Below are positions 4,835-47,448 of a stretch of DNA of 64,000 bases, in pieces. The translations under genes and the position numbers were made by a program. Under the pieces are notes generated by a model. It saw nothing but the letters and a program-made list of their open reading frames with translations. It made no database searches and had not been told where the DNA came from. The DNA is from an uncultured Gammaproteobacteria bacterium. Lineage in GTDB: Bacteria > Patescibacteriota > Patescibacteriia > UBA9570 > CAZNEH01. Numbering within the stretch: position 1 is the stretch's first letter; the number at the start of each line of letters is the position of its first letter. The DNA is taken from contig CAZNEH010000001.1 in assembly GCA_964572175.1 (NCBI GenBank), forward strand, positions 9,788 to 73,787, given 5' to 3'.

Positions 4835-4837
4835 TAG

Positions 4838-9345: not shown

Positions 9346-9351
9346 AAAAAA

Positions 9352-9381: not shown

Positions 9382-9396
9382 GTACTTGGAAAAAGG

Positions 9397-10789: not shown

Positions 10790-10869
10790 TATTTCTTAAT
10801 ATAAAAAAACTCACCGCGCGACTCGCTTGATGACGAATCGCTTGGTGAGGGGTCCCGGGGCTTGGATCC

Positions 10870-11076
10870 CTAGGCGGTCATGGGGAGGTCAGAGTTCAGG
10901 AAGGCCTGGGAGGTCGCCATGAAGGCTTCCATTTCCCCGGAGGCGGCGATGGCACCTAGGTCGACCTGGTGAAGCAGGGCGCTGCCCTCTTGTTTGTTGT
11001 AGACCAGGTTCGGTTGTCCGTCGAGGGTGAGGATGCCCACAGTTCCTTGCATTTCGAACTTCCACTTGTCGTTCAT
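10870..11076 (-). CDS. GC-rich small protein (68 aa) in a solitary cassette
   Basis: Minus-strand promoter TTGACA (11148..11143) - N17 - TAAGGT (11125..11120). The ORF has high GC (~60%, by eye) in a ~35% GC genome. Downstream minus-strand terminator hairpin CTCACC...GGTGAG plus T7 at ~10800..10850. Confidence 0.5.
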   Translation of the reverse strand: MNDKWKFEMQGTVGILTLDGQPNLVYNKQEGSALLHQVDLGAIAASGEMEAFMATSQAFLNSDLPMTA

Positions 11077-11389
11077 GTCGGCTCACTTTCAGGGCTTTGC
11101 CCTTTTGAGATTCACCCCAACCTTACCCATTTATAATGAAATTGTCAACCTATCTACGGTAGACAGGCTTTGTTTGGGGGTATGGAGGGTTTTGGAGGTG
11201 GGGGAGGGGGATTTGGAAGTGGCTCAACAAAAAAGCCGACAGTTTTTGTCGGTGTTTGTGGAGTTGTTGAGGAGTGAAATTGTTTGATATTTGCTAAGCT
11301 TGATTTAAAGTCTTATTAAGTGTTATAATATATTTACTTGTGGATAAACATAGATATTTAATAAATTCATTATTATTTAAATAAATACA

Positions 11390-11431: not shown

Positions 11432-11599
11432 TTATTCTGTTAAAGAGTCGGTGATTTCAGGCACTGGCTCTTTTTTTACTTTCTTTTTCTTTGCGTAGAC
11501 TTTGTCTACATAGAAACAAAAAGCATCTTTTCCATAATCTTTAGCGAAAATTCGCTTCCCATTACGGAGAGTAATCCACTTGCGACAAATTTTTGTCAT
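11432..11599 (-). CDS. small basic protein (55 aa, not in ORF track): MTKICRKWITLRNGKRIFAKDYGKDAFCFYVDKVYAKKKKVKKEPVPEITDSLTE
   Basis: Clean ORF followed on the minus strand by a perfect terminator hairpin (11390..11411) and a T-rich tail. Confidence 0.4.
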   Translation of the reverse strand: MTKICRKWITLRNGKRIFAKDYGKDAFCFYVDKVYAKKKKVKKEPVPEITDSLTE

Positions 11600-11913
11600 A
11601 AGTTTTTTGCTTATCCGGTTCTTAGAATTGTCCGGCTAAATGGTAAATACCTTGAATTCTGAGAATTCTGAAAGGATAAAGCAAAAACCACCGAGCGCAG
11701 ACGCCTCACCGTAATCTGTTTACACAGTTTGCGATGAGTGTTCGTAGCACTCAGCAAACCCTAGGGTTGGCAAAGCGACTACGCTCGATGGTTAATCTCT
11801 TTGTAGTAATTTGAGATTAATTTCTGCGCCCCGTCTACGAAACGGGAAAATTGTAATGAACTCTTCTATATTTTATAATTATAGCTCTTTTTTGTCAAGA
11901 GGTAAATTACTAA

Positions 11914-25860: not shown

Positions 25861-25909
25861 GTTTTTATTTTAGGGCGTTATTCTATTATAGCAAAAAAAA
25901 GAGCCCTCG

Positions 25910-26166
25910 TCAAGATGAATCGAGGAGGGCGAGAGGATCGTCCTGGCGGACGTGTTGTGATCGCTTGAGGGTCGGCAGCCAGTTGGGTACCTCGCGAAGC
26001 TGGGTGATGGTTCGTTGCCCAGAGATGCCGTGGTAGCCTTGGAGTGGTCCAGAGCGAATCTTGGTCCACCGGGGATGGTTGGTGAAGACCCACCAGCCAC
26101 GTTCGTTTTTGACTCGCAAGAAGATGATGGTGTGTCCGTCTTTGCGAGAGACGTAGGATTCGAACA
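25910..26166 (-). CDS. GC-rich small protein (85 aa) in a solitary cassette
   Basis: Minus-strand promoter TTGACT (26223..26218) - N17 - TATAAG (26200..26195), GGAG ribosome-binding site, ATG at 26166 (MFESYVSRKDGHTIIFLRVKNERGWWVF...). High local GC. The 123-aa track ORF is trimmed to this start. Confidence 0.5.
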
Positions 26167-26241
26167 TGAGTTTCTCCGGGTTGAGGTGTAGTTTTCTTAT
26201 ATCATTGATTTTAACTTGAGTCAAGGGTATAATAAAGACAT

Positions 26242-27843: not shown

Positions 27844-27889
27844 TGTTATAAGTATAGCCTAATTCTTGAATAAAAAAAAGCAGCCCCCA

Positions 27890-28111
27890 CTAGTGGCAGA
27901 TCTCGGAGATCGTTTCGCCACAGCGAGGGCAGTAGAAGGGATAGATGCCAGACGGACGCCAGGCCTTGGTGACACTTCCACGAAGAGCAGTGATGCATTG
28001 GCGGCATCCACGAACCTTGACTTGAAGGACTTGCTTGTCATGGAGCTTGGTTCCGCAGCCGATGCAGAACTTGTTGTCGTTCTGAGAGCTGAATTGGCAG
28101 CATGGCTTCAT
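27890..28111 (-). CDS. GC-rich Cys-rich zinc-ribbon small protein (73 aa) in a solitary cassette
   Basis: Minus-strand TTGACT (28171..28166) - N16 - TAAACT. Ribosome-binding site GGGGGA, then ATG at 28111. MKPCCQFSSQNDNKFCIGCGTKLHDKQ...CRQC...CPRCGETISEICH has multiple CxxC pairs. Confidence 0.5.
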   Translation of the reverse strand: MKPCCQFSSQNDNKFCIGCGTKLHDKQVLQVKVRGCRQCITALRGSVTKAWRPSGIYPFYCPRCGETISEICH

Positions 28112-28242
28112 GAGTTCCCCCTGAAAGAGCTTGAGTTGTACCAAGTTTACTAGAAATAGAGATAAAGTCAAATTGTGGATAAGATTTTGGGGATATGGTA
28201 TACTAAAAGAGTATTAATTTAAAATAATTAACTTAAAAAATT

Positions 28243-34287: not shown

Positions 34288-36777
34288 ATGGATGAAGGAA
34301 TGTTATTTTTTGGCCTAGTTTTAGTGGCTTTTACTTGCTACGCTGGGTTTAAGTTTAAATCTCGAGCCATGCGTTATATTGGCTTGTTTTTTAGTATTGT
34401 TATCGCTTTATTTTTTCTTTTGAATAATATTGCCTTTGCTCAAACTGATTTTGATTTAAGTGAATTAAATCAGTTTACAGGAGAGGATTTAGCTGATTTT
34501 GCAGGAAAAAGCGTTAGTTATGCTGGGGACGTAGATGGTGATGGATATAATGATTTTATAGTTGGGGCTGATCAGAATGATGATGGCGGAAATCAAGCCG
34601 GAGCAGCTTATTTAATTTATGGGCAGTCTGAAGAATATTCTTCATTAACTGATTTATCAACGGTAGCTAAATTTATTGGAGAAGCAGGTGGTGATTATGC
34701 TGGAAAAAGCGTTAGTTATGCTGGGGACGTAGATGGTGATGGATATGATGATTTTTTAATTGGAGCTTATTTAAATGATGATGCCGGAAGTCAGGCCGGA
34801 GCAGCTTACTTAATTTATGGGCAAAGCGATAAGTATACAGGAGATATTGATTTGTCTACTAAGGCACAATTTACCGGAGAGGCAATTGATGATTATGCGG
34901 GGGTAAATGTATCCTCGGCTGGTGATGTAGATGGTGATGGATATGATGACTTTTTAGTTGGGTCTAGTAGAAATGGAGATGGAGCAAGTAAAGCTGGTGC
35001 AGCTTATTTAATTTATGGACAAAGCGCTGATTATACTGGAACAATTAGCTTGTCTACTAGGGCACAATTTACTGGAGAGGCAATTGATGATTATGCTAGT
35101 AAGGTTTCAGCAGCTGGAGACGTAGACAATGATGGGTATGATGATTTTTTAGTTGGATCTAAAGATAATGATGACGGAGGAAGCGGTGCTGGTGCAGCTT
35201 ATTTAATTTATGGACAAAGCGCTGATTATACTGGAACAATTAGCTTGTCTACTAGGGCACAATTTACCGGAGAGGCAGCTGGTGATTCTTCGGGAGTATC
35301 TGTTGCTGCGGCCGGTGATGTTGATAATGACGGATACGATGATATTTTAATTGGAGCATTTTTAAATGACGATGGTGGAAGTCAAGCTGGAGCAGTTTAT
35401 TTAATATATGGCCAAAGCGCCGATTATACTGGAACGTCTAACTTGTCTACTAAAGCACAATTTACCGGAGAGGCAGCTGGTGATGACGCAGGGGTAAGTG
35501 TAGCTTCGGCTGGAGATGTTGATAATGATGGGTACGATGATTTTTTAGTAGGAGCTTATTTAAATGATGCTGGTGGAGATATTGCCGGAGCAGCTTATTT
35601 AATTTATGGGCAAAGCGCGGATTATACAGGAACAGCTAGTTTGTCTACTAAGGATAAGTTTATTGGAGAAGAATCATTGGATTATGCAGGAATAAGCGTA
35701 TCGACAGCTGGTGATATTAATAATGATGGTTATAGTGATATTTTAATAGGGGCTTATCAAAATAGTGAGGGTGGAAGTCTGGCTGGAGCAGCTTATGTGG
35801 GTTATTTGCATATTGATTTAGATGGAGACGGGGTAACAGCTACTACTAGCTTAATTGCCGGAACTGATTGTAATGATAATGACGCAGCAATTTCTGCTAA
35901 TCAAACTTATTATCAGGATTCAGATGGCGATGGTTATGGCTCAGACACTACTACTTCGGTTTGTTCTTTAACAGCGCCGACAGGCTATGTGGCTAACTCA
36001 GATGATGCTAATGACAATGATTATGATAATGATGGCTCAGAAACCGGAACTGATTGCGATGATACTGATGATACTATTAGTGAGAATCAAACTTATTATC
36101 TAGATTCAGATGGAAATGGGTATGGTGATCCAGCAGAGACCACAGAGGTTTGTTCTTATACTGTGCCAGATGGTTATGCGTCTGAGGCTCGACTAGATGT
36201 GCCAGAAAATTTAGTTAATACAGACAGAGGAATTTATAAGGCTACTTTAGGTTGGGATGAAGTTAGTGATGTAGAAAGTTATAATATTAGATATAGAAAG
36301 TCTTCTGAATCAAGCTATACGACTACTACTAGTTCTATAAATAGTGTGGAGTTGGAAGATTTAGAAAATGCGGGAAAATATTATTGGCAAGTACAGGGGG
36401 TATCTGGTAGTTATACTTCAGAATGGACAGATGGAAAAAGATTAGTAACTTATCCAAGAAAGATAACTAAGTCTGAATTTACTTTTCCTAAGTCTGATAG
36501 AAAAGCAAAGAAGCTTAGAATAAAAATAGAGACTATGGCTAAAAGAGTGACTGGTTTTAATATTTTAGTTTATAAAAAGAAGAGTGGAAAGTGGAGTAAA
36601 ATAGAAACAGTTAAAAGATCTAATGATAGTTCTAAGAATTATGTTTATAAATATATTACTGGGTTAAAGCCAGATACTAAATATAAGTTTGAAGTAAAAG
36701 CTAGGAGAACTATTGGTTCAACTAAATACTTAAGTCAGAACGTAGCCACCAGATATATTACGACTAAATCGCTATGA
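34288..36777 (+). CDS. secreted FG-GAP (integrin-alpha-like) repeat beta-propeller protein with MopE-like Cys repeats and Lys-rich FN3-like C-terminal domain
   Basis: Seven or more repeats of AGDVDGDGYDDFL(I/V)GA...AGAAYLIYGQS. CNDND/CDDTD Cys motifs. Basic C-terminus. Confidence 0.8.
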   Translation: MDEGMLFFGLVLVAFTCYAGFKFKSRAMRYIGLFFSIVIALFFLLNNIAFAQTDFDLSELNQFTGEDLADFAGKSVSYAGDVDGDGYNDFIVGADQNDDGGNQAGAAYLIYGQSEEYSSLTDLSTVAKFIGEAGGDYAGKSVSYAGDVDGDGYDDFLIGAYLNDDAGSQAGAAYLIYGQSDKYTGDIDLSTKAQFTGEAIDDYAGVNVSSAGDVDGDGYDDFLVGSSRNGDGASKAGAAYLIYGQSADYTGTISLSTRAQFTGEAIDDYASKVSAAGDVDNDGYDDFLVGSKDNDDGGSGAGAAYLIYGQSADYTGTISLSTRAQFTGEAAGDSSGVSVAAAGDVDNDGYDDILIGAFLNDDGGSQAGAVYLIYGQSADYTGTSNLSTKAQFTGEAAGDDAGVSVASAGDVDNDGYDDFLVGAYLNDAGGDIAGAAYLIYGQSADYTGTASLSTKDKFIGEESLDYAGISVSTAGDINNDGYSDILIGAYQNSEGGSLAGAAYVGYLHIDLDGDGVTATTSLIAGTDCNDNDAAISANQTYYQDSDGDGYGSDTTTSVCSLTAPTGYVANSDDANDNDYDNDGSETGTDCDDTDDTISENQTYYLDSDGNGYGDPAETTEVCSYTVPDGYASEARLDVPENLVNTDRGIYKATLGWDEVSDVESYNIRYRKSSESSYTTTTSSINSVELEDLENAGKYYWQVQGVSGSYTSEWTDGKRLVTYPRKITKSEFTFPKSDRKAKKLRIKIETMAKRVTGFNILVYKKKSGKWSKIETVKRSNDSSKNYVYKYITGLKPDTKYKFEVKARRTIGSTKYLSQNVATRYITTKSL

Positions 36778-39512
36778 AGTTTAGATATTTATTAATTTTA
36801 TGTGTAGTTTTTTTCCCGCTGGCCGGGCAAGCGTTGACTTTGGATTATGATGGGTGTTGGGAAAAAGAAAGTAGTGCCTCGGCGATAGTCTTGAACATGC
36901 AGGGTTTTGAATGTGAGATTACGGTAGCTGGAAATGTGAATGAACAAATTTCTTTTACAGTAGAGCATGTGGATCCGGATTATTTTTTAGTAGATAATTA
37001 TGATTCTATAACTCGGGATGGAAATGAACTAAGCTTTACTAAAGTTTTAACAGCTAATGAAGAGGTGATAAATATTTCACCTTGGGAAGAGTTGGATGAT
37101 TTTTATTTTGTGGGAATGAGTGATCCGCAGCCAGACTCTGATCAATTATATGATCCGACTCATAAAGGAATTTTACAGCAAGTAGATATTATTAATCCTT
37201 ATTTTACTCTAATAGCCGGAGACCTTACTTTTGGTAGTAACACTGAAGCAGAAGTTCAAATTGATGCTGAGGGTTTTTTGACTGTGATGGAAGAAAATTT
37301 AAATACTTCTTGGTTTACAGCAGTGGGTAATCATGATGTAGAAGTAAGTATGGATTTATATACAGATTATTTTGGGTCAACTTATTATTCTTTTGATTTT
37401 GGAGGGGCGCATTTTATGAGTCTTTCTACAGAAGAAGATGGAGAAGAAAATAGCATAGAAGGAACGCAGTACACTTGGTTGCAGTCTGATTTGGCTAATT
37501 CTAGTGCAGACAAGAAAATTGCTTATTATCATCGGCCGTTAGTACCTCCATCTTGGGCTAGTTACACAGGCTGGGATGACCCTGACCAAGCCACTACTGT
37601 AGCGGGTTTATTTGACCAAAACGGGGTAGATTTGGTGTTAAATGGGCATTCTCATGGTTATGATTACGAGTTAATAGATAGTAGTGATTTTTCTAGTGTC
37701 AGTAACGGATTTTATCAGTTGGTTTCTGCGGGAGCTGGAGGGACTTTAGTTAGCGGAGAGAATCATTATGTATTAGTTCATGTTTCCGATGATGGGGTAG
37801 AGTATGAGAAAATTGATTATGATAGTTTTTATATTACTAAAAGCACAGAAGATTTAAATGACGGTACCGAAGATGAGGTGACAATTACAGTAACTAACTC
37901 TGGAGAAATAGATTGGGACTGGGCTAGAACTAAATTTTTATTAAGTGGATCTTATGTTCATGCTGAGGATCAAGATGGAAATTATTTAGACCATAGTGAT
38001 TATCAATTTGATGATTATCATGTAGTTTACGTAACCAGTGATATTCCAGCGGGAACATCTAAGGAAATTACAGTTAAGAAAAATCATAAAGCTCATACTG
38101 GAGTGACTAATACTTATAATAATGAAGGAAATGTTTCTTATTCAGAAAACCCAGAGAGCAGCGAGACTCAGATAGACTTAGAAGCTCAGACTTCTAAGGG
38201 AACAGCAGCTGTAACTGTTACAGATTGGGAGGGTAAAAGTTGGCAAGAAGTGGCGAGTAAAAAAAGTGTTCAAACAACTTATACAGTCGGTGATTTAACG
38301 GCTGATTATTGCTATGTGGTAAAAGTTAATGATTCTAATTTTGGTCGGTATTGCGCAGATGATGACGGGGCGATTAGTTTTACTTATGATAAAGAAGTTA
38401 AAAACAGAACTTATGAGATTACGGCTGAAACTGATTGGTACCCTGGAAAAGTGGCGGTAGCGCCTTATTCTGATGGTGGGGCACAGGTGAGAATGTTTAA
38501 TTCTAACGGAAAAACATTAGATCAATTTAGAATTTATAAAAATACTTGGGAAGGCGGGTTTAATTTAGCTTGGGGAGACTTAGATGGAGATAGAGAGGGC
38601 GAGTTGATTACTTTACCTAAAGAAGGAAATAGAGCCTTACTGCAAGCGTTTACAGATAGCGGAAGCTTATTAGCTAAGAAGCGAGTTTTTTCTAAAGATT
38701 TTAAAAGTGGAGCGCGGATAGCCGTGGGTGATATTGATGGAAATGGAAAAGACGAGATAGTAGTAGCTGGACCTAAAAGAATTAAAGTTTATAGGTATCG
38801 ATCTAAAAAAGATGATTTTAAATTAATTACTTCAAAAAGTGTTTATGGAGATGATTTTGAAGGAGACTTGCAGGTAGTTTTAGGGCAAGTTAATGATAAT
38901 GATAAGCTAGAAATTTTAGTGGGACCAAATACTGGGCAAGGTAATTTAAAGATTTATAAATTTACTAGCAGTAAATTAAGTTTAATTGGTCAAGAAGAGA
39001 CTCATGTAAATGAATTTGATGGCTTGAGCATAGCCGTAGGTGATATTAATAATAAGGGTAGAGCAGAAATAGCCGTAGCCGCCAATGGGTTAATTAAGTT
39101 TTATAGATTTACTAGTAGTAAAGAGGTAAAGTTTGTTAAGAAAAAAAGACCATATAAAAATTATTACGGAGATTTAGATATAGCTTTGGGAGATTTAAAT
39201 GGTAAGCCAAAAACAGAATTAGTAGTAGCTCCACAAGGAGGTCAAGATTTATTAAAAGTTTATAAGTTTAAGAGTAATAACACTTTTGAGCTACTAGATA
39301 AAAAAGAGCCTTATGGAGAGGGTTATAATTATGGAATGCAGGTGGAATTAGTGGATACTGATGATGATTGTGACATGGAAATAGTTTTAACTCCTTTACA
39401 AGGAAGCCCTAATACTAGGTTATATGATTTTGGGACAGACCTGGATTTAGAGGACTGGTGGTGGGCTTATGACACCGACTTTACAGGTGGGGTAAATGCT
39501 GCTACATTGTAG
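36774..39512 (+). CDS. secreted calcineurin-like metallophosphoesterase fused to FG-GAP-like repeats
   Basis: GDLTFGS and VGNHD phosphoesterase motifs, LNGHSHGY. Later GDLDGD/VGDIDGNGKDEIVVAG repeats. 4-nt overlap with the upstream gene. Confidence 0.7.
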   Translation: MKFRYLLILCVVFFPLAGQALTLDYDGCWEKESSASAIVLNMQGFECEITVAGNVNEQISFTVEHVDPDYFLVDNYDSITRDGNELSFTKVLTANEEVINISPWEELDDFYFVGMSDPQPDSDQLYDPTHKGILQQVDIINPYFTLIAGDLTFGSNTEAEVQIDAEGFLTVMEENLNTSWFTAVGNHDVEVSMDLYTDYFGSTYYSFDFGGAHFMSLSTEEDGEENSIEGTQYTWLQSDLANSSADKKIAYYHRPLVPPSWASYTGWDDPDQATTVAGLFDQNGVDLVLNGHSHGYDYELIDSSDFSSVSNGFYQLVSAGAGGTLVSGENHYVLVHVSDDGVEYEKIDYDSFYITKSTEDLNDGTEDEVTITVTNSGEIDWDWARTKFLLSGSYVHAEDQDGNYLDHSDYQFDDYHVVYVTSDIPAGTSKEITVKKNHKAHTGVTNTYNNEGNVSYSENPESSETQIDLEAQTSKGTAAVTVTDWEGKSWQEVASKKSVQTTYTVGDLTADYCYVVKVNDSNFGRYCADDDGAISFTYDKEVKNRTYEITAETDWYPGKVAVAPYSDGGAQVRMFNSNGKTLDQFRIYKNTWEGGFNLAWGDLDGDREGELITLPKEGNRALLQAFTDSGSLLAKKRVFSKDFKSGARIAVGDIDGNGKDEIVVAGPKRIKVYRYRSKKDDFKLITSKSVYGDDFEGDLQVVLGQVNDNDKLEILVGPNTGQGNLKIYKFTSSKLSLIGQEETHVNEFDGLSIAVGDINNKGRAEIAVAANGLIKFYRFTSSKEVKFVKKKRPYKNYYGDLDIALGDLNGKPKTELVVAPQGGQDLLKVYKFKSNNTFELLDKKEPYGEGYNYGMQVELVDTDDDCDMEIVLTPLQGSPNTRLYDFGTDLDLEDWWWAYDTDFTGGVNAATL

Positions 39513-39551
39513 CCTGAAATAAATAATAAATACGTGCGTATTATATAGTAT

Positions 39552-40100
39552 ATGGACCAAAAATTGGTGTTAGCTGCTTTGAAAAACCCTGATGATTATA
39601 CCCAAATAGTTCAAAAGTACGAAAAGCCTATTTTAAGCTATATTATGCGGATTTCGGGTGTTAGCTACCAAGAGGCCGAAGACATTGGGCAGGAAATATT
39701 TTTAAAAGCATATACTAATTTAAATGATTACGACCAGCGGAGGAAGTTTTCGACTTGGCTTTTTTCGATTGCTCATAACGAGACTATTTCTCATTGGCGA
39801 AAGAATAAAAAGCGTTTAAAAGACTTGGACATAGAAGATGATGTGCTGCAGAATATTTTGCCAGATGAATTTGACATGGTTAAAAATATTGATGATAAAG
39901 TTTTAAAACAAGAAATAAAAGAAGCTATTAAAAAGTTGGATATTAAATATCGGGAAGTTTTGCAGTTGAAGTATTATGATGATTTATCTTATGAAGAGAT
40001 TTCTGATATTATTAAAAAGCCAGTTAATACTGTAGGGACGTTGTTGAATCGAGCCAAGAAGAAGTTAGAAAAGTTATTAGCCAATAAAAAATATGACTAA
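39552..40100 (+). CDS. ECF-type RNA polymerase sigma factor (sigma-70 regions 2 and 4)
   Basis: Region 2 blocks (FLKAYTNLNDYD...FSTWLFSIAHNETISHWR) and region 4 HTH (SYEEISDIIKKPVNTVGTLLNRAKKKL). Confidence 0.85.
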   Translation: MDQKLVLAALKNPDDYTQIVQKYEKPILSYIMRISGVSYQEAEDIGQEIFLKAYTNLNDYDQRRKFSTWLFSIAHNETISHWRKNKKRLKDLDIEDDVLQNILPDEFDMVKNIDDKVLKQEIKEAIKKLDIKYREVLQLKYYDDLSYEEISDIIKKPVNTVGTLLNRAKKKLEKLLANKKYD

Positions 40101-40764
40101 CATAGCCGAAGAGATTAAGAAAAAAATAGAAGAAAAAAAGCTCAAGCCAAAGCCAAGAGTGTGGTTTGTAATTAAGCATGTTTTGTTATTGGCTGGAGCA
40201 GTTGTTTCTCTAATATTTATTAGTTTAGCTTTAAGTTTAAGCTGGGAGATTTTAGAGGATCAAGAAATTTGGGCTTTACGTCGAAAGATATTTTTAATGG
40301 TTGAAGCGATTCCTTATTTTTGGATTGGAATAGCTGTGATTGTGGGAGTCCTTGGTTATTTGGATTTAAAAAAGACTAAGCGAGGGTATAAAGTGCGGCT
40401 ATGGAAGGTTTTAGGAGGAATGGCTTTAGTTTGTTTATTTTTAGCGAGTATATTTTATTTTGTGGGAGTAGCTGAAAAAGCAGAAGAAAGATTAGAAAAG
40501 AGAATGAAGGGGTATCATAAAGTAGTGCCATTTTCCGAACATCATTGGATGCAGCCAGAACGTGGTTTATTAATGGGAGATGTTTTAGATATTTCAGAGG
40601 AAGAAATAGAATTAGAAGATTTAGAAGAAAATTATTGGATAGTAATAATTGAAGAGGATACTAGATTTGGGAAAAAAGGAAAACCAGAAAAAGGCCATAG
40701 AATTAAAGTTTTAGGTGAAGAAGAGGAGGAAGAGTTTAGATTTAAGGCTGAGTTTGTGAAATAA
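40093..40764 (+). CDS. membrane protein, candidate anti-sigma factor
   Basis: Overlaps the sigma factor gene by 8 nt. Three TM helices. Confidence 0.45.
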   Translation: MTNIAEEIKKKIEEKKLKPKPRVWFVIKHVLLLAGAVVSLIFISLALSLSWEILEDQEIWALRRKIFLMVEAIPYFWIGIAVIVGVLGYLDLKKTKRGYKVRLWKVLGGMALVCLFLASIFYFVGVAEKAEERLEKRMKGYHKVVPFSEHHWMQPERGLLMGDVLDISEEEIELEDLEENYWIVIIEEDTRFGKKGKPEKGHRIKVLGEEEEEEFRFKAEFVK

Positions 40765-40820
40765 TATTTTTTAATTGTCGTATTACTTAGTGTCTAGACA
40801 AGATTATTAAAAAAATTATT

Positions 40821-41186
40821 ATGACTAAAAAAAGTAAAGTAATTAGTATTTCATCATTATTAGCAGTAGTTGGGATCGTTGGAGCCCTAGGCTTTGCCGG
40901 AGTCAGCTATGCTCATGAAAGAAATGATGTTGATCATCAAGAGCATCGAGCAGAAATGGATCAAATTTTTGCTGATCGTGACTACGAAGCTTGGAAAGAA
41001 GTAATTGAATCTAAGCCAAAGATCACTGATTATGTAAATGAAGAAAACTTTGATCGTTTTGCAGAGATGCATGAGTTAATGCAAAGCGGCGATAAAGAAG
41101 CAGCTGATGAGATTCGTAAAGAACTAGGCTTGCCTGAGAAAATGGGAAAGAAAGGAAAGGGCATGCACGGAAAAAGATTTCAATAA
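40821..41186 (+). CDS. small secreted hypothetical protein
   Basis: Signal peptide. Followed by the terminator ATCCCC-N14-GGGGAT plus T-run. Confidence 0.5.
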   Translation: MTKKSKVISISSLLAVVGIVGALGFAGVSYAHERNDVDHQEHRAEMDQIFADRDYEAWKEVIESKPKITDYVNEENFDRFAEMHELMQSGDKEAADEIRKELGLPEKMGKKGKGMHGKRFQ

Positions 41187-41195
41187 CATATAAAA

Positions 41196-41228
41196 ATCCC
41201 CCGACTCCTCCGCCAGGGGATTTTTTAT
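41196..41228. terminator. bidirectional rho-independent terminator
   Basis: A5-ATCCCCC...GGGGAT-T7, between convergent genes. Confidence 0.65.
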
Positions 41229-41238
41229 TTACAGATAA

Positions 41239-42129
41239 TTATCTAATGAATTCGCTTTGATATTCAGGGTTTATTTTTTTAGTGAAGCAAATTTCACCAG
41301 TGTCGTGCTCCCAGGTGTTTGCGGGAATGGTCATGTCGTACTTATTACTGAATTCGTAGCCATAGCTAGGGAAGTTGAACTCGGTACAGATTTGATAATG
41401 GGTTTCGTCAGTAATAGTGTATTGATAAGCTTCTTTGTAATCGTCGAAATCAGTAATATTTTCTGGGAGAGCTTTTTGATTATTATAGTAAGAGCTAATA
41501 CTGTAGTCTAGAGATTCTAGGTCATTAATTTTATCTTGGTCGATGTTGCGAAGTCTTTGATTAGCTGGAGAGCCAACAAAGAAGAATCCGGCGATTATAG
41601 CAGCTAGAACAACTATAGAGGTAAAGATAAATAAAAAGCGAAGTTGTTTGTCGTATTTATTTTTTAAGTCAACAATATAGTAACCGAAAACAATTCCGGC
41701 GACAAAGAAGACGGTTAAAACTTTTAAGGCAAAAGCCATGGTTAGGCCGCCGTATAAGAAGCCGATTAATAAGGCAATTAAGTTTCCGATAATTAATAGG
41801 GCAGTAACAAATAAAGTGAAGTAAACTAACCACTTACGTAAAAACATTTCTTTTTTCCAAGCATCTTTGGCATAGCTTTTTTTAATTAGCCAGGTGCTGA
41901 TTACATAAACAGGGTAGGTGATAATTAAAAAGGCCAGTCCACTGCGAATGAGGTCGTAAGCTCCTTCGATTTGATAGGAGTGGATGTAGTCCTCGGCTAA
42001 TAGGTCTGGCATTAATAGGTTGATAATTTGGAAGATAACCACCATAAAGCTGATAGCACTGGCATACAGCATAATGACGGAAAGGAGGTGCATAAACACG
42101 TCCTTGGCGGAGATTGGTTTTTGTTGCAT
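41239..42129 (-). CDS. integral membrane hypothetical protein
   Basis: Multiple TM helices. Confidence 0.55.
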   Translation of the reverse strand: MQQKPISAKDVFMHLLSVIMLYASAISFMVVIFQIINLLMPDLLAEDYIHSYQIEGAYDLIRSGLAFLIITYPVYVISTWLIKKSYAKDAWKKEMFLRKWLVYFTLFVTALLIIGNLIALLIGFLYGGLTMAFALKVLTVFFVAGIVFGYYIVDLKNKYDKQLRFLFIFTSIVVLAAIIAGFFFVGSPANQRLRNIDQDKINDLESLDYSISSYYNNQKALPENITDFDDYKEAYQYTITDETHYQICTEFNFPSYGYEFSNKYDMTIPANTWEHDTGEICFTKKINPEYQSEFIR

Positions 42130-42191
42130 ATTTTTTTATTTTAATGATTCTTTAATTATAACACAATATCTATAAAATAAATAAATTTTAG

Positions 42192-42220
42192 TTGACAGGG
42201 GTAGTTTATTTAGGTAAGAT
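42192..42220 (+). promoter_or_regulatory. sigma-70-type promoter TTGACA-N17-TAAGAT (first cassette)
   Basis: TTGACA 42192..42197, GGGG-containing spacer, TAAGAT 42215..42220. AGGAGG ribosome-binding site at 42241. Confidence 0.6.
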
Positions 42221-42252
42221 ATTTACGAATCCACAAGCAAGAGGAGGAAATC

Positions 42253-42507
42253 TTGCAAGGACAGACACAGAGAGACAAGCATCCGGCCAAGCATGGCTGG
42301 GTCAAGGTCAAGAAGCTGGTGAACAACTCTCGTGGCCGACGGCGCCCGAAGCGCGTCTGGGTCCAGAGCGGCGATGCTCCTGGTAAGAAGGAGGAGCGCA
42401 TCAGGGCCAAGAAGAAGCGCGAGGCTCAGCAGAGAGCGGCAGCTCAAGAGGCCCGGAGGAAAAGGGATGAAGAGGAGCGCCGAGCAGCACGCCGCCGCTG
42501 GTGGTAG
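42253..42507 (+). CDS. highly basic Lys/Arg-rich small protein (84 aa), TTG start
   Basis: AGGAGG lies 6 nt upstream of the TTG start. KRK/RRR-rich sequence. GC-rich codons. Confidence 0.45.
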   Translation: MQGQTQRDKHPAKHGWVKVKKLVNNSRGRRRPKRVWVQSGDAPGKKEERIRAKKKREAQQRAAAQEARRKRDEEERRAARRRWW

Positions 42508-42533
42508 CTGGTTTTCAGCGACGAGTGTGAATA

Positions 42534-42578
42534 CCCCCCCCTGCAGCTCTACGGAGTTGACAGGGGTTATTTTTTTAT
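42534..42578 (+). terminator. terminator hairpin CCCCTG-N17-CAGGGG plus T-run, with the next promoter's -35 (TTGACA) embedded in the 3' arm
   Basis: CCCCCCCTG cagctctacggagttga CAGGGG TTATTTTTTT, followed by TATACT 18 nt after TTGACA. Confidence 0.55.
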
Positions 42579-42624
42579 TCTATACTTACATTACAATTTT
42601 TCAAACCGACGAAGGAAGATTCCC

Positions 42625-42834
42625 ATGAAGATGCTCAAGTGCGAGAACTGTGGATACCCTATGCCAGTATCTGGCAAAATCAACGAAGATGATGGCCTGC
42701 GGTGCCCGATCTGCAACGGGCTGATGAAGAAGCCTGGGGCCGGGGAGCCGACGACCGAGGTGGACATCACCGAACGTCCCTTCATTCCGCCGCGGCCACT
42801 GCCGCCGCCGACCGAGATCCCGGCCTACGCTTAG
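42625..42834 (+). CDS. zinc-ribbon small protein (69 aa)
   Basis: CENC...CPIC pairs. Ribosome-binding site GAAGGAAG. Pro-rich C-terminus. Confidence 0.5.
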   Translation: MKMLKCENCGYPMPVSGKINEDDGLRCPICNGLMKKPGAGEPTTEVDITERPFIPPRPLPPPTEIPAYA

Positions 42835-42961
42835 GCCAAGGACAACTTCGCGGGCATTAGCCCCACGACCCTAGGATGAGATTCATCTGATGGGTCGCTT
42901 TTTTTGACTAAAACAGGGTGGGGTGGTAGGCTAAAGTTAGCGTAAACCAAGGGAGGTACGC

Positions 42962-43348
42962 ATGTGTGAGAAAAGGTATTTCTTCGATGATCGTCAGTCC
43001 ACCCAGTTCAAGTGCGTCTGCGGGGGATCGGTCGTGGTTCTGGAGCATGATGCTCAGGCCGAGAAGATCGGGTGTCAGTCCTGCGGCAAGACGGCTCGGG
43101 TTCGTCCGAGTGCTTCTCCAGACACTCTGATCGAGTGCCAGCCGGAGAAGTGGTCGGGGACGAACTTCTACCTCGAGAACCATGGGCCCGACAAGGGCTG
43201 GACTCACTGCGGCCAGCCCATGGTGATCATCGGTCGTCTGGATGCTCACCTGTGGCCAGTTGGCTGCCAGGTCTGTGGAGCCATGGGCCATGTCGGACAC
43301 AACTCCACGCCCGAGGACTGGCCGCCCGACGGCAGCTGCTCTGGCTAG
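42962..43348 (+). CDS. Cys-rich small protein, family A member 1 (128 aa)
   Basis: Ribosome-binding site AAGGGAGG. Shares HCG(Q/R)(P/T)MVIIG...GCQVCG...H.G.N...W.P with the 45593..45934 product. Confidence 0.55.
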   Translation: MCEKRYFFDDRQSTQFKCVCGGSVVVLEHDAQAEKIGCQSCGKTARVRPSASPDTLIECQPEKWSGTNFYLENHGPDKGWTHCGQPMVIIGRLDAHLWPVGCQVCGAMGHVGHNSTPEDWPPDGSCSG

Positions 43349-43370
43349 AGCACACAACGACTTGTTCGAT

Positions 43371-43404
43371 GACCTATATTGGGGGATATAGGTCATATTT
43401 TTTT
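43371..43404 (+). terminator. rho-independent terminator (GACCTATAT family)
   Basis: GACCTATAT-tggggg-ATATAGGTC plus T-run. Confidence 0.7.
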
Positions 43405-43486
43405 CCGCCTTCGCAGACTGCGGCGGACAAGTTTGACTCTAATGGGGTGGGATGGTAGGGTTAAATTAACAAGGGAGGATTTAGAA

Positions 43487-43882
43487 ATGTCTAAGAGAAG
43501 TGAACCTTTTGACGCTTGCTTGGCTGGCTGGATGGAGTTGGAAGAGATGATGCTTCGGGATCGGCCCCCAGTTCGAGCGAGGAAGCTCAAGAAAGGGATG
43601 CTGAAGCGCTGGTCCTGGGTGACCAATTCCCGCGGGAAAAAGGTTCGGCGTAAGACCTGGGGTAAGCCTGGTCCGCCGCCGAAGCCTCGTTCGGGTAATC
43701 TAGTGGCCTTCAACGCTTCGGATCAGTGGCGGCTGCACCGGGCGGCTGGAGTTAAGAGCCGGAGGGACTGGGATAGGCTGACCACTTGCCAACAGGACGA
43801 GGTTTTTATGAAGGCCCTGGAAGATGGTTTGGAGCCCTTTAGCCTGGTCGATGGCTATCGGCACTTCTGCCGTGGCGACTAA
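43487..43882 (+). CDS. basic small protein (131 aa), start trimmed to the ATG with a ribosome-binding site
   Basis: AGGGAGG lies 7 nt upstream of the ATG at 43487. Promoter TTGACT-N17-TAGGGT at 43433..43461. Confidence 0.5.
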   Translation: MSKRSEPFDACLAGWMELEEMMLRDRPPVRARKLKKGMLKRWSWVTNSRGKKVRRKTWGKPGPPPKPRSGNLVAFNASDQWRLHRAAGVKSRRDWDRLTTCQQDEVFMKALEDGLEPFSLVDGYRHFCRGD

Positions 43883-43991
43883 CCCCTGTTCAACCCGAGT
43901 GGTTGACAGGGGGTATTTTTATTTGGGTTGACCCGGGGAGGGTTTTGTGCTAAGGTTAGGGCGCCTAATTCACAAAGGGAGGGCACACAAA

Positions 43992-44462
43992 ATGCTCGGT
44001 TTGATTTCCAGAGGCTGGCATATGTTCATGGGTCTGTGGGTGGAAGATATCGAGACGGTTCGCGGTGTTCCGCTGAAGCCTGGAGTGGTTCACGACCTCT
44101 TCATCTGCGGTGGCTGGCCGTTCAAGGCCGAGATCGTGCCGGAGTACGTGGCGATCAGGCCCAGGGGCGAGACCTGGCCGCTGGACTACGGTATGATGTC
44201 CAAGAGCTTCCGGCACCGTGACTCCAAGGCGCTGCAGGCCTACAACTGGTCCATGGTGCGTCGGACCGATGGCGGTCCCATGTTCGAGTGCGACCACAAC
44301 ATCTTCGTCCTCCGCGTCCACAAGGGTGAACTTCCTCGACATGATCACTTCATCGCACGCGAGGGGCGTGATTTCTCTGAGGCCCAGGTCTTAGAGGTCA
44401 TCGACGACGAGAAGGATCTGATCATGTGCGTCTGGATCCGCGAGGCCGGGCTCGTCGAGTAG
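43992..44462 (+). CDS. small protein, family B member 1 (156 aa)
   Basis: AGGGAGG ribosome-binding site. N-terminus MLGLISRGWHMFMGLWV is paralogous to MLSWLARPWNSFIGLWV of the 45252..45554 product. The ~70-bp promoter/5'UTR is near-identical to the one at 45182..45251. Confidence 0.55.
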   Translation: MLGLISRGWHMFMGLWVEDIETVRGVPLKPGVVHDLFICGGWPFKAEIVPEYVAIRPRGETWPLDYGMMSKSFRHRDSKALQAYNWSMVRRTDGGPMFECDHNIFVLRVHKGELPRHDHFIAREGRDFSEAQVLEVIDDEKDLIMCVWIREAGLVE

Positions 44463-44484
44463 CGGCGAAGACAACTAGTTCGAT

Positions 44485-44518
44485 GACCTATATCGGGGGG
44501 ATATAGGTCGTTTTTTTA
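44485..44518 (+). terminator. rho-independent terminator (GACCTATAT family)
   Basis: GACCTATAT-cgggggg-ATATAGGTC-G-T7. Confidence 0.7.
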
Positions 44519-44586
44519 TTGACTTAGAGTGGGGGAGATGTTAGGGTAAAAATAGTGTTCAACTTCAACCCCGAGCTCGAGGTGAG

Positions 44587-44799
44587 ATGATGAAAGGTGC
44601 TGCTCTCAGCTGTGTTCCCTGTGACTGGACGGCGACTGATGTGTCCAATGCAAGGTTCTGTCCGTTCTGTGGAGATGATCTGGAGAAGAAGGGAGTCCTG
44701 GGCAAGAAGGTTCCCTTCCGGGTGAAGCTCTTGGCCCGCGTGCCCGTGACCGCGAGGCTCAGGCGCCTGGCTTCTATCTTCGGGGAAGACAAGCGCTAG
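44587..44799 (+). CDS. zinc-ribbon small protein (70 aa)
   Basis: CVPC...CPFC pairs. Promoter TTGACT-N17-TAGGGT at 44519..44547. Confidence 0.5.
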   Translation: MMKGAALSCVPCDWTATDVSNARFCPFCGDDLEKKGVLGKKVPFRVKLLARVPVTARLRRLASIFGEDKR

Positions 44800-44927
44800 A
44801 CAGCGACGACGAGGTAAGTGTGGGCCGTGCCCGCCATAGTCCTGATTCATATCGGGACGACGGCGGGTCTATTTTTTTGACTAAAAAAACAGGGGATGTT
44901 AGAGTATTATTATCAAGGGGGAAAGAC

Positions 44928-45143
44928 ATGGATTTTAGTATTTTTCTAGTGGCAATGATCGTGGCTTCACTGGGCCTGGGTAAACACTTCGTTTTCAGGG
45001 GCGCAGAAAAAATGGATCGCTTCAAAAAGAATACGGGGCGCACCGTTACAGAGCGAGAAGAGGTACACGAGGCAGAGGGCCTTCTTCTGGCAGGGGGCAT
45101 CCTGATTTTCTTGGCGTTCAATGCCGCGATGTTCATTCTTTAG
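44928..45143 (+). CDS. small two-TM membrane protein (71 aa)
   Basis: Ribosome-binding site AAGGGGGA, ATG at 44928. Two hydrophobic helices. Promoter TTGACT-N17-TAGAGT at 44877..44905. Confidence 0.45.
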   Translation: MDFSIFLVAMIVASLGLGKHFVFRGAEKMDRFKKNTGRTVTEREEVHEAEGLLLAGGILIFLAFNAAMFIL

Positions 45144-45251
45144 CCCGCTACAGTCTTCGGACCACGGCGGGTTCTTTTTTTATTTGGGTTGACTCGGGAG
45201 GGTTTTGGTGCTAAGGTAAGGGCGCCTAATTCACAAGGGAGGGCATGTAAG

Positions 45252-45554
45252 ATGTTGTCATGGTTGGCTAGACCGTGGAATTCATTCATTGGTCTGTGGG
45301 TTCATGGTGCCCCTCAGATCGAGGATCAGCAGGTTTCCGAGCCGCTGCAGGTCGACGAGGTCGAGCTGGTGGTCGGGGAGACCTTCTTTTTCCAGAGGGA
45401 CAAGTTCTTCATCGTGATCACCTGGAGTGCTCGCAGCGCGCGGCGTCCGGTGGTCGGCGATCGGATCAAGGGATCGTCTGGGCAGGACGCGATCGTGCTG
45501 TCGACCATTCCTGGAGAGAAGAACAAGTACCTCTGCCGGATCATGATCGACTAG
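45252..45554 (+). CDS. small protein, family B member 2 (100 aa)
   Basis: AGGGAGG ribosome-binding site. Paralogue of the 43992..44462 product. Co-transcribed with the downstream family A gene, with no intervening terminator. Confidence 0.55.
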   Translation: MLSWLARPWNSFIGLWVHGAPQIEDQQVSEPLQVDEVELVVGETFFFQRDKFFIVITWSARSARRPVVGDRIKGSSGQDAIVLSTIPGEKNKYLCRIMID

Positions 45555-45592
45555 GCAGAGCAGAACTACACGAATCACACGAGGAGGTGTGC

Positions 45593-45934
45593 ATGTCGGA
45601 AGCGAGGTACCACAAGAACCACTTCGGTCTGAAGGAGGGCTTCGAGCACTGCGGCCGGACCATGGTGATCATCGGATGTGGCGATCGTCTGGAGACGCTC
45701 GGCTGCCAGGTCTGCGGTCACACGCAGCACTCTGGCATGAACACGGAAAACTGGACGCCCACGTCGACGGATGACGAGGACGACGATCCGGAGGAGGAGT
45801 CAGCGCCTCGGCCCTGGCTTCGAGATTCGGGTCCCAGCTCCTGCGAAGGGTGTACTCGTTACGGGGAGACCTGTTCCGGGTCTACCTTCGGAGAATCGTG
45901 CACCGACGCAGATGATGGACACCGTAGCTGGTGA
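45593..45934 (+). CDS. Cys-rich small protein, family A member 2 (113 aa)
   Basis: AGGAGG ribosome-binding site, ATG at 45593. Motif EHCGRTMVIIGCGDRLETLGCQVCGHTQHSGMN is paralogous to the 42962..43348 product. Confidence 0.55.
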   Translation: MSEARYHKNHFGLKEGFEHCGRTMVIIGCGDRLETLGCQVCGHTQHSGMNTENWTPTSTDDEDDDPEEESAPRPWLRDSGPSSCEGCTRYGETCSGSTFGESCTDADDGHRSW

Positions 45935-45940
45935 TTCCAT

Positions 45941-45976
45941 GACCTACACCGGGGGGATGTAGGTCGTATTTTTTTA
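45941..45976 (+). terminator. rho-independent terminator (GACCTA family)
   Basis: GACCTACA-ccgggggga-TGTAGGTC plus T-run. Confidence 0.7.
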
Positions 45977-46036
45977 TTTTGACTAATTTGGGGTGGGGTG
46001 TTAAGGTTAAATTGAAAATAGTAACTTAGAACACTT

Positions 46037-46714
46037 ATGAAAAAATTATCCCTCGCGATCTTGGTATTAGCGTTTTTTGCGTTGACTATGCCAAGTAGCT
46101 CGTCCGCAGCTGTTAGAACTGTGACGACAATTAAAAAAGCTTCAGGTTTAAAAGCTGATATCTCCGCAGACTCTGATTCCAAACTTAGATGGACCAAGGT
46201 TTCCAAGACCAAGTATTATAAAGTTCAGCTTAAAAAGAAAAACGGTAAAAAAGTTAAGACTTGGACAAAGCGGAAAAAGAATTGGGTAAAGATTACGGAT
46301 AATGTAAAAGAGGGGAAGAAGTATAAGTATAGAGTGAGGGGTTGTAAAAAGAATAAATGTGGGAAGTGGTCGAAATATAAATATTTTAATACTAATGATT
46401 TAGTTGAAGAAACTGAAGAAGAGGTAGTTGTTAGTGAAGAGAGTAATGAACAATCAGAAGAGGTGGTTACTACGCCAGTAGTTGAGCCTACTCCAGATCC
46501 GACTCCTGATCCTGAGCCAACGCCTGAGCCGGAACCCACTCCTGAGCCAGAGCCAGTTAGCTATGAGTGTAGCGCAAATATTTATAATTGTAGTGACTTT
46601 AATTATCAGTCAGAGGCACAAGATGCTTATGAGCAGTGTTTAGCTGAAGTGGGGGATGATATTCATGATTTGGATAGGGATGGGAATGGGTTGGCTTGCG
46701 AGAGTTTAAAATAG
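46037..46714 (+). CDS. secreted protein: signal peptide, Lys-rich FN3-like domain, PEPTPEP linker, C-terminal Excalibur calcium-binding domain
   Basis: Driven by a promoter TTGACT-aatttggggtggggtgt-TAAGGT identical in style to the GC-rich cassettes, but the gene itself is low-GC. C-terminal CSDF...DRDGNGLACE matches the Excalibur motif. Confidence 0.7.
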   Translation: MKKLSLAILVLAFFALTMPSSSSAAVRTVTTIKKASGLKADISADSDSKLRWTKVSKTKYYKVQLKKKNGKKVKTWTKRKKNWVKITDNVKEGKKYKYRVRGCKKNKCGKWSKYKYFNTNDLVEETEEEVVVSEESNEQSEEVVTTPVVEPTPDPTPDPEPTPEPEPTPEPEPVSYECSANIYNCSDFNYQSEAQDAYEQCLAEVGDDIHDLDRDGNGLACESLK

Positions 46715-46719
46715 AAGAT

Positions 46720-47448
46720 ATGAAAAAAAATAAATTTGAAGATAATTTATTTTATAAAAATTTTTATGGTAAAAATGGTTTTTTAACCCCTATAATGATT
46801 AAAATGGTTAAGGAGGGGCGTGGAAAAGATTCTGTTAATTTAGAAAAAGATGAACAGTCTACAGTAGATTGTTTTAAATTAGTAAAAGAAATTGATTTAA
46901 AAATAAGAGATTTAAATTATTGTATATACTTGATTAAATATTATCCTAGTAATAAAAAATTACGAGATAATATAACTAGGCACGATTACATAATTTATCA
47001 TTTAGAATATTTTTATATAAATGTAGTAGCGTTATTTGATAGGATTTTAAAATTATCAAATTTTGTACATGACATTGGCTTGTCTGATAAATATGTTAAA
47101 TTAGATATTCTTATTACAAATAAGAAGATAAGTAAGCAGCACGTTAGTGCATTAAAAAAGTTCAATAAGTCGATAGAAGAAATAAGAGGTATACAAAATA
47201 ATATAAAGCACAAAGAAAAATTGAAAGACCCAGGAATAAAGAACGCACAGTTACTAGAGTCTCTTTATAGGGTTAATAATTTAGACAAAAAAAGTGCAGC
47301 ATACTTGGGTTCTAAAAAAGAGTATAATAAATATATAAAAGATAAAGTGCAAAAAATAAAAGAATTTAACGATACTATAGAAGTAGTAGTTTTTGATTTA
47401 GTCGATTCTTTTTACAGCACGTATGAATCTAATTTTATTAATAAGTAA
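46720..47448 (+). CDS. hypothetical protein
   Basis: ATG at 46720 preferred over the upstream TTG. No recognisable domain. Confidence 0.45.
   Translation: MKKNKFEDNLFYKNFYGKNGFLTPIMIKMVKEGRGKDSVNLEKDEQSTVDCFKLVKEIDLKIRDLNYCIYLIKYYPSNKKLRDNITRHDYIIYHLEYFYINVVALFDRILKLSNFVHDIGLSDKYVKLDILITNKKISKQHVSALKKFNKSIEEIRGIQNNIKHKEKLKDPGIKNAQLLESLYRVNNLDKKSAAYLGSKKEYNKYIKDKVQKIKEFNDTIEVVVFDLVDSFYSTYESNFINK

Follow-up and report, generated by a model that had tools for sequence, protein, structure and literature searches.

A 3.8-kb array of nine small genes (g1 to g9) in a Patescibacteria chromosome is probably a recent horizontal acquisition, a fragment from a region of small accessory genes in a mobile high-GC replicon, phage or plasmid. 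The array lies in a stretch of 64,000 nucleotides (nt) of contig CAZNEH010000001.1 (assembly GCA_964572175.1), here called the window, to which positions refer unless another locus is named. Patescibacteria (candidate phyla radiation, CPR) are ultra-small, largely uncultured episymbionts in which gene gain is poorly known. An initial annotation of the window had described the block, which is rich in guanine and cytosine (GC), as a series of individually promoted and terminated cassettes forming a modular, possibly mobile system with a role such as immunity or anti-defence. The analysis reported here points to an imported islet of ORFans (open reading frames (ORFs) without homologues) with a phage-like modular architecture, not to a demonstrably new system.

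The island (42190-46012) has a GC content of about 0.56 (0.559 over 42190-46010) against 0.353 for the rest of the window, a contrast already evident in the initial annotation. In a sliding window, GC content climbs from about 0.36 to 0.55–0.62 across 42190-46010 and drops back within about 100 bp on each side. The shift extends to every class of sequence that we compared: coding GC is 0.59 in the array and 0.354 in native genes, and the array spacers stand at 0.475 against 0.303 for native non-coding DNA. Because these spacers are 47.5% GC where native non-coding DNA is 30.3%, the regulatory DNA of the array arrived together with its genes.

All nine predicted ORFs are present, lie on the plus strand and encode 69–156 amino acids (aa). 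Their GC content at third codon positions (GC3) ranges from 0.57 to 0.80 and in every case exceeds that at first positions (GC1), which exceeds that at second positions (GC2). Values of up to 0.80 in this order imply long coding evolution under GC pressure, and the ORFs look protein-coding, with the signature of genes shaped by such pressure and not of random GC-rich DNA or RNA genes; an Rfam scan found no family in the block at gathering thresholds. Two products, g2 and g6, each have four cysteines in a CxxC...CxxC arrangement, and transmembrane-length segments are confined to g7, both features that had been noticed before. A role as secreted effectors was considered and rejected, because a signal-peptide-like segment occurs nowhere except in g7.

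The genes are related among themselves, as had also been proposed. Proteins g3 and g9 are identical at 27 of 50 aligned residues (54%) and keep all cysteines and histidines of an HCG...MVIIG...GCQVCG core. Different codons specify 8 of these 27 identical residues, with GC3 still near 0.73 in both genes, which argues that the pair diverged in a GC-rich background, that is, in the donor. We add a second pair, g1 and g4 (E = 2e-5 in a small local database), with a common W-V-x-NSRG-basic-W motif. Proteins g5 and g8 have their first 17 residues in common and unrelated ORF bodies, and the two zinc ribbons, g2 and g6, form a loosely similar pair.

The array comprises eight transcription units for its nine genes. 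Promoters, Shine–Dalgarno (SD) sequences and terminators are present as described, but the nine units first counted reduce to eight, because the 38-nt spacer between g8 and g9 contains an SD and neither promoter nor terminator. Every unit has a TTGAC(A/T/C)-N17/18-TAnnnT site, and each ORF is preceded by an SD of the GGAGG/AGGGAGG type. The recurrence of the σ70-type promoter exceeds chance: TTGAC-N18-TARRNT occurs 10 times in the window and 1.04 ± 0.95 times in shuffled sequences, with 0 of 100 shuffles reaching 10, and 9 of the 10 sites front GC-rich ORFs or sit at the right end of the island. The cassette promoter takes the form TTGACT-N17-TGnTA(A/G)GGT, followed by an AGGGAGG SD. TAnnnT/TAGRRT −10 boxes are typical of high-GC Actinobacteria, which we take as a lead only. 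Predicted terminators are perfect stems with T-runs directly 3′ of stop codons; on folding, all eight form a hairpin followed by a U-tract, seven with z-scores of −3.2 to −4.5 and one with −1.9.

These signals recur as modules, in keeping with the modular organisation first described. Five repeat families of terminator–promoter modules (D1–D5) are common to unrelated ORFs. The promoters fall into two families, D1 with five copies and D3 before g5 and g8, and the terminators into three types: type 1 after g1, after g4 and at the left edge, type 2 after g3, g5 and g9, and type 3 after g6 and g7. Copies of type 2 are 69–87% identical, stand after unrelated gene families (g5 as against g3/g9) and include, after g9, a compensatory T-A to C-G change in the stem. 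The promoter/leader regions of g5 and g8 are 89% identical over 63 nt while the proteins are alike in their first 17 residues only, which argues that modules have been recombined onto different ORF bodies.

Both edges of the island are truncated modules. The D4 sequence (AGTTGACAGGGG and a T-run) is found at 42190, 42555 and 43901; after g1 and g4 it forms the 3′ arm and tail of the CCCCTG...CAGGGG terminator, and at the left edge it also supplies the −35 region of the promoter of g1 (42192-42220, TTGACA-N17-TAAGAT). At the right end, promoter 45979-46007 matches the g3/g4 family (D1) through GGTTAAATT, beyond which the sequence is AT-rich, with no SD before the ATG of the Excalibur gene. Since similarity to D1 is lost after GGTTAAATT and before any SD, the promoter facing the Excalibur gene is the island's own truncated last module. 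That promoter had been taken as a sign that the block belongs to this genome, an argument that falls with its identity and with the different signals of native genes. The two truncated edges in turn mark the island as a fragment cut arbitrarily from a longer array of like units.

Native genes are expressed, to judge from their sequences, by another grammar. An SD-like motif precedes just 2 of 43 native ORFs of at least 150 aa, and in 18 cases a long ORF has a TAnAAT box 3–12 nt ahead of its ATG, usually in the form TGnTATAAT and unaccompanied by a conserved −35. Such TGnTATAAT-type starts are found window-wide, for example at 9722, 14653, 26242 and 32348 and at 50457 (-) and 32302 (-). Native expression thus seems to depend on leaderless mRNAs made from extended −10 promoters. 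Two native genes do use a AAAGGAGAAA SD, so this organism has SD-led initiation at its disposal, and the TGn element is found in both native and cassette promoters. Cassettes combine a perfect −35, a 17-nt G-rich spacer, TGn, a TA(A/G)G(G/C/A)T −10, a leader of 30–40 nt and a strong SD. Set against the leaderless, SD-less native genes, this argues that the block is foreign not in composition alone but also in expression grammar, which we regard as the key result. Coordinates are collected in Table 1.

Table 1 Genes, intergenic modules and edges of the GC-rich island, with the solitary cassettes (window positions)
Feature	Position	Strand	Description
GC-rich foreign island, whole block	42190-46012	+	GC contrast; edges defined by truncated modules
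Left edge	42190-42212	+	Type-1 terminator 3′ half (AGTTGACAGGGG + T-run) without 5′ arm; repeat family D4
g1	42253-42507	+	84 aa, TTG start, isoelectric point (pI) 11.8, 30 K+R; paralogue of g4 (NSRG-basic-W motif)
g1 terminator	42538-42577	+	CCCCUG...CAGGGG + U-run; 3′ arm carries −35 of g2 promoter 42557-42586
g2	42625-42834	+	69 aa, CxxC...CxxC, zinc-ribbon-like, Pro-rich tail; Zn_ribbon_8 below curated cut-off
g2 terminator + g3 promoter	42866-42932	+	Hairpin + T-run directly 5′ of promoter TTGACT-N17-TAGGCT (42904-42932; family D1)
g3	42962-43348	+	128 aa, 10 Cys; C-terminal half paralogous to g9 N-terminus (family A)
g3 terminator + g4 promoter	43369-43461	+	Type 2, GACCTATAT..ATATAGGTC + T-run; promoter 43433-43461
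g4	43487-43882	+	131 aa, pI 10.3, basic; paralogue of g1
g4 terminator + g5 promoter	43883-43956	+	Type 1; promoter 43928-43956; promoter/leader module D3 = 43916-43978
g5	43992-44462	+	156 aa; 17-aa N-terminus and promoter/leader in common with g8
g5 terminator + g6 promoter	44482-44547	+	Type 2; promoter 44519-44547
g6	44587-44799	+	70 aa (69 from second ATG), CxxC...CxxC, zinc-ribbon-like, basic
g6 terminator + g7 promoter	44829-44905	+	Type 3, CCCGCC...GGCGGG + T-run; promoter 44877-44905; D5
g7	44928-45143	+	71 aa, two hydrophobic segments of membrane-spanning length; lowest GC of the array (0.49)
g7 terminator + g8 promoter/leader	45142-45239	+	Type 3; D3 copy 45177-45239; promoter 45189-45217
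g8	45252-45554	+	100 aa, first gene of bicistronic g8-g9 unit
g9	45593-45934	+	113 aa, 8 Cys, acidic; own GAGGAGG SD, no own promoter; family A
g9 terminator + terminal truncated promoter/leader module	45939-46012	+	Type 2; module 45979-46007; faces native Excalibur gene
fn3/Excalibur secreted protein	46037-46714	+	Native composition, GC3 0.36, no SD; 3′ of the island's last promoter
s1 cassette	10810-11148	-	Promoter 11120-11148; ORF 10870-11076, 68 aa, GC3 0.80; terminator ~10810-10849
s2 cassette	25890-26224	-	Promoter-like site 26196-26224; ORF 25910-26167, 85 aa, GC3 0.67
s3 cassette	27870-28171	-	Promoter-like site 28144-28171; ORF 27890-28111, 73 aa, 9 Cys, GC3 0.68

The window itself is a Patescibacteria chromosome. 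The DUF5671 protein encoded beside the array has 78 relatives, nearly all in metagenome-assembled genomes (MAGs) of Patescibacteria, and its best full-length match (47%) comes from a Kerfeldbacteria MAG; GreA, OTCase, a transketolase, an ABC transporter, fn3/FG-GAP surface proteins and a giant kinase sensor are likewise usual for the group. A separate Logan assembly of run SRR8146440 contains an 11,508-bp contig that is base-identical to window 35238-46745 and spans both island junctions, in agreement with the earlier view that the block is no assembly chimera. The array proteins are also encoded on a 92-kb NCBI contig, and the contig was found in one sequencing run only. Public gene calls in the array (window 43442-45934; 8205-10697 of locus L001) look mis-started or merged. 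A 212-aa call (P0005, in both NCBI and Logan) runs the g9 frame across g8, where its GC3 is just 0.40, and calls of 146, 171 and 107 aa begin inside promoters or leaders where SD-supported starts give 131, 156 and 71 aa. Automatic gene callers trained on an AT-rich genome mis-start or merge several array genes, a practical issue for such loci.

Homology searches agree with the earlier remark that none of the proteins has a motif assignable to a known family. For g1–g9, no match to a Pfam, PHROGs, NCBIfam or PADLOC model passed the curated thresholds, the zinc-ribbon matches falling below the cut-off, and the suggested immunity or anti-defence role finds no support in these results. Searches of multi-billion-protein collections covered g5 and the g3/g9 family. 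Queried by word index, a collection of 5.8 billion proteins gave nothing but self-matches for g5 and for the g3/g9 profile, and a full HMMER search with g5 against 1.84 billion representative proteins returned only g5 itself. All 12 proteins, those of the solitary cassettes described below included, were without a match among plasmid records (tblastn) and PDB sequences (phmmer), and tblastn against 78 Patescibacteria loci revealed no orthologue. JGI metagenome contigs had no match to the g1/g4 family, and JGI metagenomes had none to the DNA pattern of the type-2 terminator. Among 80 loci, the promoter-module pattern was matched only in L001 and L002, both of them copies of this part of the window, and literature searches on GC-rich small genes in CPR genomes and on the sequencing run yielded nothing relevant.

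The island sits between native DUF5671 and Excalibur genes, with no integrase, transposase or tRNA flanking it; its flanks encode DUF5671, an extracytoplasmic function (ECF) sigma factor, FG-GAP/metallophosphatase, fn3/Excalibur, MGMT-DBD, Bro-N, M23 and GreA proteins. Locus L023, from a distant relative, has greA upstream of the DUF5671 gene at a distance of 180 bp. In the window the two genes keep that orientation but stand 7.8 kb apart, with the island and the Excalibur gene between them, together with genes for a 242-aa orphan that is very AT-rich, a DNA-binding protein of the MGMT type, a Bro-N protein and an M23 peptidase. Judged against relatives that are all distant (at most 47% identity), this may point to a variable region between greA and the DUF5671 gene. 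The AT-rich orphan (46696-47448, 242–250 aa) overlaps the end of the Excalibur gene, lies in DNA of 0.21–0.26 GC with a GC3 of 0.19, has a TAAAAT box 7 nt before the ATG at 46720 and matches no family beyond a sub-threshold 'PQLLE family'.

Three solitary GC-rich small genes (s1–s3, Table 1) occur elsewhere in the window, on the minus strand and between native genes, with GC3 of 0.67–0.80. The s2 terminator overlaps the stop codon, and the s3 ORF is followed by a T-run with no stable hairpin predicted. The initial annotation had seen the promoter architecture of the array recur on these genes. The genes exist and their architecture is alike, but a blastn-short comparison found no sequence module common to them and the array. 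Two further observations concern the surroundings of s1. A non-coding G-rich tract (GGGGGTATGGAGGGTTTTGGAGGTGGGGGAGGGGGATTTGG; 11150-11230, +) lies just upstream of the opposite-strand s1 promoter. At 11610-11898 (-), downstream of a TTGACA-N17-TAAAAT promoter (11870-11898), about 250 nt form a strongly structured region (minimum free energy −85.9 kcal/mol, z = −6.8) that ends near 11672 in a long hairpin and U-run; it is followed by a 55-aa ORF (11432-11599), has no Rfam match at E ≤ 1 and is a candidate unannotated non-coding RNA (ncRNA) or leader.

GC-rich genes are also found in other Patescibacteria. In 42 other low-GC (<45%) loci totalling 623 kb, 17 ORFs in 9 loci meet the GC3 criteria. 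The resulting densities, 12 GC-rich small genes in the 64-kb window as judged by eye against about one per 37 kb elsewhere, are not like for like, as the strict automatic filter used on the other loci passes only 7 of the 12. High-GC imports into CPR genomes seem recurrent, not rare, and the nine-gene tandem array is exceptional among the 42 loci sampled. One of these loci (L023, from Parcubacteria GW2011_GWA2_40_23, 40% GC) has three small GC-rich genes (15229-16517, -; GC3 0.73–0.82) in two units with TTGACA promoters and terminators, and a conserved leader common to two of the genes; a 250-bp AT-rich spacer there holds about five copies of TTCGTAA/TTACGAA, operator-like in look. Larger GC-rich ORFs (GC3 0.82–0.90) stand in two loci of about 40% GC (L040, 6633-7700 and 19330-20040; L067, 13415-15085) and encode a 355-aa protein (asparaginase-like by eye only), a 236-aa Cys-rich membrane protein and a 556-aa secreted protein; these were evidently transferred.

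Among described architectures, the closest to the array is the PeSL-flanked ORFan 'hyperplastic regions' of T4-like phages. Promoter early stem-loops (PeSLs) are repeated modules of σ70 promoter and stem-loop that precede ORFans (Arbiol et al. 2010, PMC2839356; Comeau et al. 2014, PMC4122927). The array resembles them in its short composite intergenic modules, running from stop codon through a stem-loop with G tracts and a strong σ70-type −35/−10 to SD and start codon, which are repeated before small genes without homologues and form sequence families common to unrelated ORFs. It differs in lying in a Patescibacteria chromosome instead of a T4-like phage genome, in not being AT-rich, in a stem-loop that is always 5′ of the −35 and carries the T-run of a classical intrinsic terminator, and in having no sequence similarity to PeSLs. 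Recombination between motifs, with indels, replacements or mini-circles, is a further mark of PeSL regions; for the array the one indirect hint of it is that unrelated ORFs have modules in common. Morons are defined by their own promoter and terminator and by deviant GC (PMC2920897). The array shares with them predicted autonomous units, a GC content unlike its surroundings (0.56 vs 0.35) and an accessory nature, but morons occur singly between (pro)phage genes, whereas here eight units stand in tandem in a bacterial chromosome, no phage homologue was found, and GC deviates upward by more than 20 points. As no phage genome surrounds the block and homology is lacking, membership in either class fails, and the array may be said to work and look like moron or PeSL regions, not to be one. 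With genomic islets and ORFans it shares atypical composition and codon usage and a lack of homologues, and perhaps a position in a region that varies against distant relatives. In bacteria, ORFans and genes of recent acquisition typically exceed the host genome in AT content; the array is instead much GC-richer than its host, and its SD-led initiation is almost unused by the recipient's genes. Integrons, too, have tandem small ORFs, mostly without known function, separated by hairpin-forming repeats, but the array's cassettes have their own promoters, its hairpins are terminators and not attC sites (no formal attC model was run), and it has no intI, attI or Pc.

A high-GC donor, already suggested in the initial annotation, remains the best reading of the block, yet several observations weigh against an imported phage or plasmid fragment. 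No donor appeared in any collection searched, and the block has no phage or plasmid hallmark gene in or beside it, nor capsid, tail, terminase or replication genes within 10 kb. The 12 proteins had no tblastn match in 50,697 phage records, and neither IMG/VR scans with g3, g4 and g5 nor a search of IMG/VR with the promoter-module pattern gave a match. The AlphaFold2 models of g5 and g3 were of too low quality to support a fold search (predicted local distance difference test scores 39.5 and 49.3). Three solitary cassettes at separate loci fit repeated capture or dedicated insertion better than one accident, and the GC-rich ORFs in other CPR genomes make a lineage-wide process possible. Cassettes at four loci would also suit an old, lineage-specific part of the genome, made up of native genes that selection holds at high GC (for example for stable mRNA, high expression or a certain amino-acid content), as would the TGn element common to both promoter classes and the SD-led initiation of two native genes. 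We consider this decidedly improbable: GC peaks at third codon positions, so that the choice of amino acids does not drive it, the spacers share the shift in GC, the cassettes depart from 41 of the 43 native genes in their use of leader, SD and −35, neither the 78 Patescibacteria loci nor the protein databases searched hold an orthologue, and modules are truncated at both edges. The abrupt compositional steps, in an organism known from a single sequencing run, might instead reflect a piece of a high-GC organism misjoined into a CPR contig during assembly or binning, but the 92-kb NCBI and 11.5-kb Logan contigs agree base for base across both junctions, three GC-rich genes of 200–260 bp are embedded among native genes elsewhere, which misjoins cannot repeat, and the last island promoter abuts a native gene with no repeat to mislead an assembler, leaving such a chimera very improbable. 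Scarcely credible is a cluster of structured ncRNAs, or an integron-type array with attC sites as its hairpins. RNA genes often account for GC-rich segments of AT-rich genomes, and the spacers do hold conserved hairpins; against this stand the negative Rfam scan, the strong codon periodicity, the placement of SDs and start codons, the paralogues conserved at the protein level, the perfect stems with T-runs just 3′ of stops, and a promoter before each cassette where integron cassettes are promoterless, with no integrase nearby.

The block might also belong to a dedicated mobile or shuffling system, in which units move by recombination of composite modules (PeSL-type mini-circles) or through an unknown recombinase. 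Such a system would seed both the array and the solitary cassettes and supply a fast-changing small-protein repertoire for CPR conflict with hosts or phages. In its favour are the module families common to unrelated ORFs, promoter/leaders more conserved than the ORFs behind them, the compensatory change that preserves the type-2 hairpin, three single-unit cassettes cleanly inserted in intergenic DNA, and the local density of such genes relative to other low-GC CPR loci. But the solitary cassettes have no sequence module in common with the array, no recombinase is adjacent (the only tyrosine recombinases lie at least 36 kb off in an AT-rich element), the edges cut through modules and not at their boundaries, the contig comes from one run, with no second strain or sample in which gain or loss could be seen, and the divergence of g3 and g9 with GC3 retained indicates evolution in the donor. 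We found no evidence for cassette mobility or for a coherent system, which the initial annotation had put forward, and judge this explanation unlikely. That the array and solitary genes stem from an undescribed Patescibacteria process of cassette dissemination, with high-GC promoter–ORF–terminator units captured and shuffled through composite modules, seems to us quite unlikely; if true, it would provide rapidly changing nucleic-acid-binding or zinc-ribbon small proteins for an episymbiont's conflict with its host or phages.

Other features of the window stand apart from the array. The nearest tyrosine recombinases (294-1196 and 4838-5743) belong to a region (181-7055) in which they follow tRNA-Thr and which also encodes DUF4238 and Schlafen/AlbA_2 proteins; most of its long ORFs have GC3 of 0.15–0.22 (0.30 in the first recombinase), and the region has the look of an integrated, AT-rich element with no relation to the GC-rich array. 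Two kilobases upstream of the array, an ECF-type sigma factor gene (39552-40100) overlaps a 223-aa ORF without family match (pair 39552-40764), which from its position alone is a possible anti-sigma factor. A 1,695-aa protein with Ser/Thr kinase, AAA, GAF, PAS and histidine kinase domains is encoded at 14653-19740. No evidence ties the array to either of these. Control of the array by the ECF sigma factor was considered and rejected, as the cassette promoters are σ70-type (TTGAC/TAnnnT); ECF-type promoters are AAC/CGT-like.

Under the preferred reading, import from a high-GC replicon, the source would have been a larger small-accessory-gene array that evolved at about 58–62% GC, most likely in a phage or plasmid of a high-GC bacterium. 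There, duplication and recombination between modules would have given rise to the module families and to the pairs g1/g4, g3/g9, g5/g8 and, loosely, g2/g6. A 3.8-kb fragment would then have entered a CPR chromosome of 35% GC through illegitimate recombination, landing between its native DUF5671 and Excalibur genes. With it would have come its own grammar: a hairpin and T-run, then TTGACT, a G-rich spacer of 17 nt with TGn, TA(A/G)GGT, a leader, AGGGAGG and a small ORF. The perfect −35 and extended −10, together with the dependence of native promoters on the TGn extended −10, suggest that the CPR housekeeping sigma factor could transcribe the eight units independently, and translation would proceed through SD pairing. 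The products may be cytoplasmic basic and zinc-ribbon proteins like phage modulators of host nucleic-acid machinery, with one small membrane protein, and the last island promoter would read into the Excalibur gene, a case of promoter capture.

The locus offers a clean, dense instance of imported DNA set apart from its recipient by composition and expression grammar alike, and is organised like the ORFan 'nurseries' of large phages. Expression of its units would mean that SD-type genes can work unaltered after import into a genome of the leaderless type, and the array would be a natural test bed for the flexibility of translation initiation in CPR bacteria. Should islands of this kind prove recurrent, the donors could give a clue to the hosts of these bacteria, or to the phages of those hosts.

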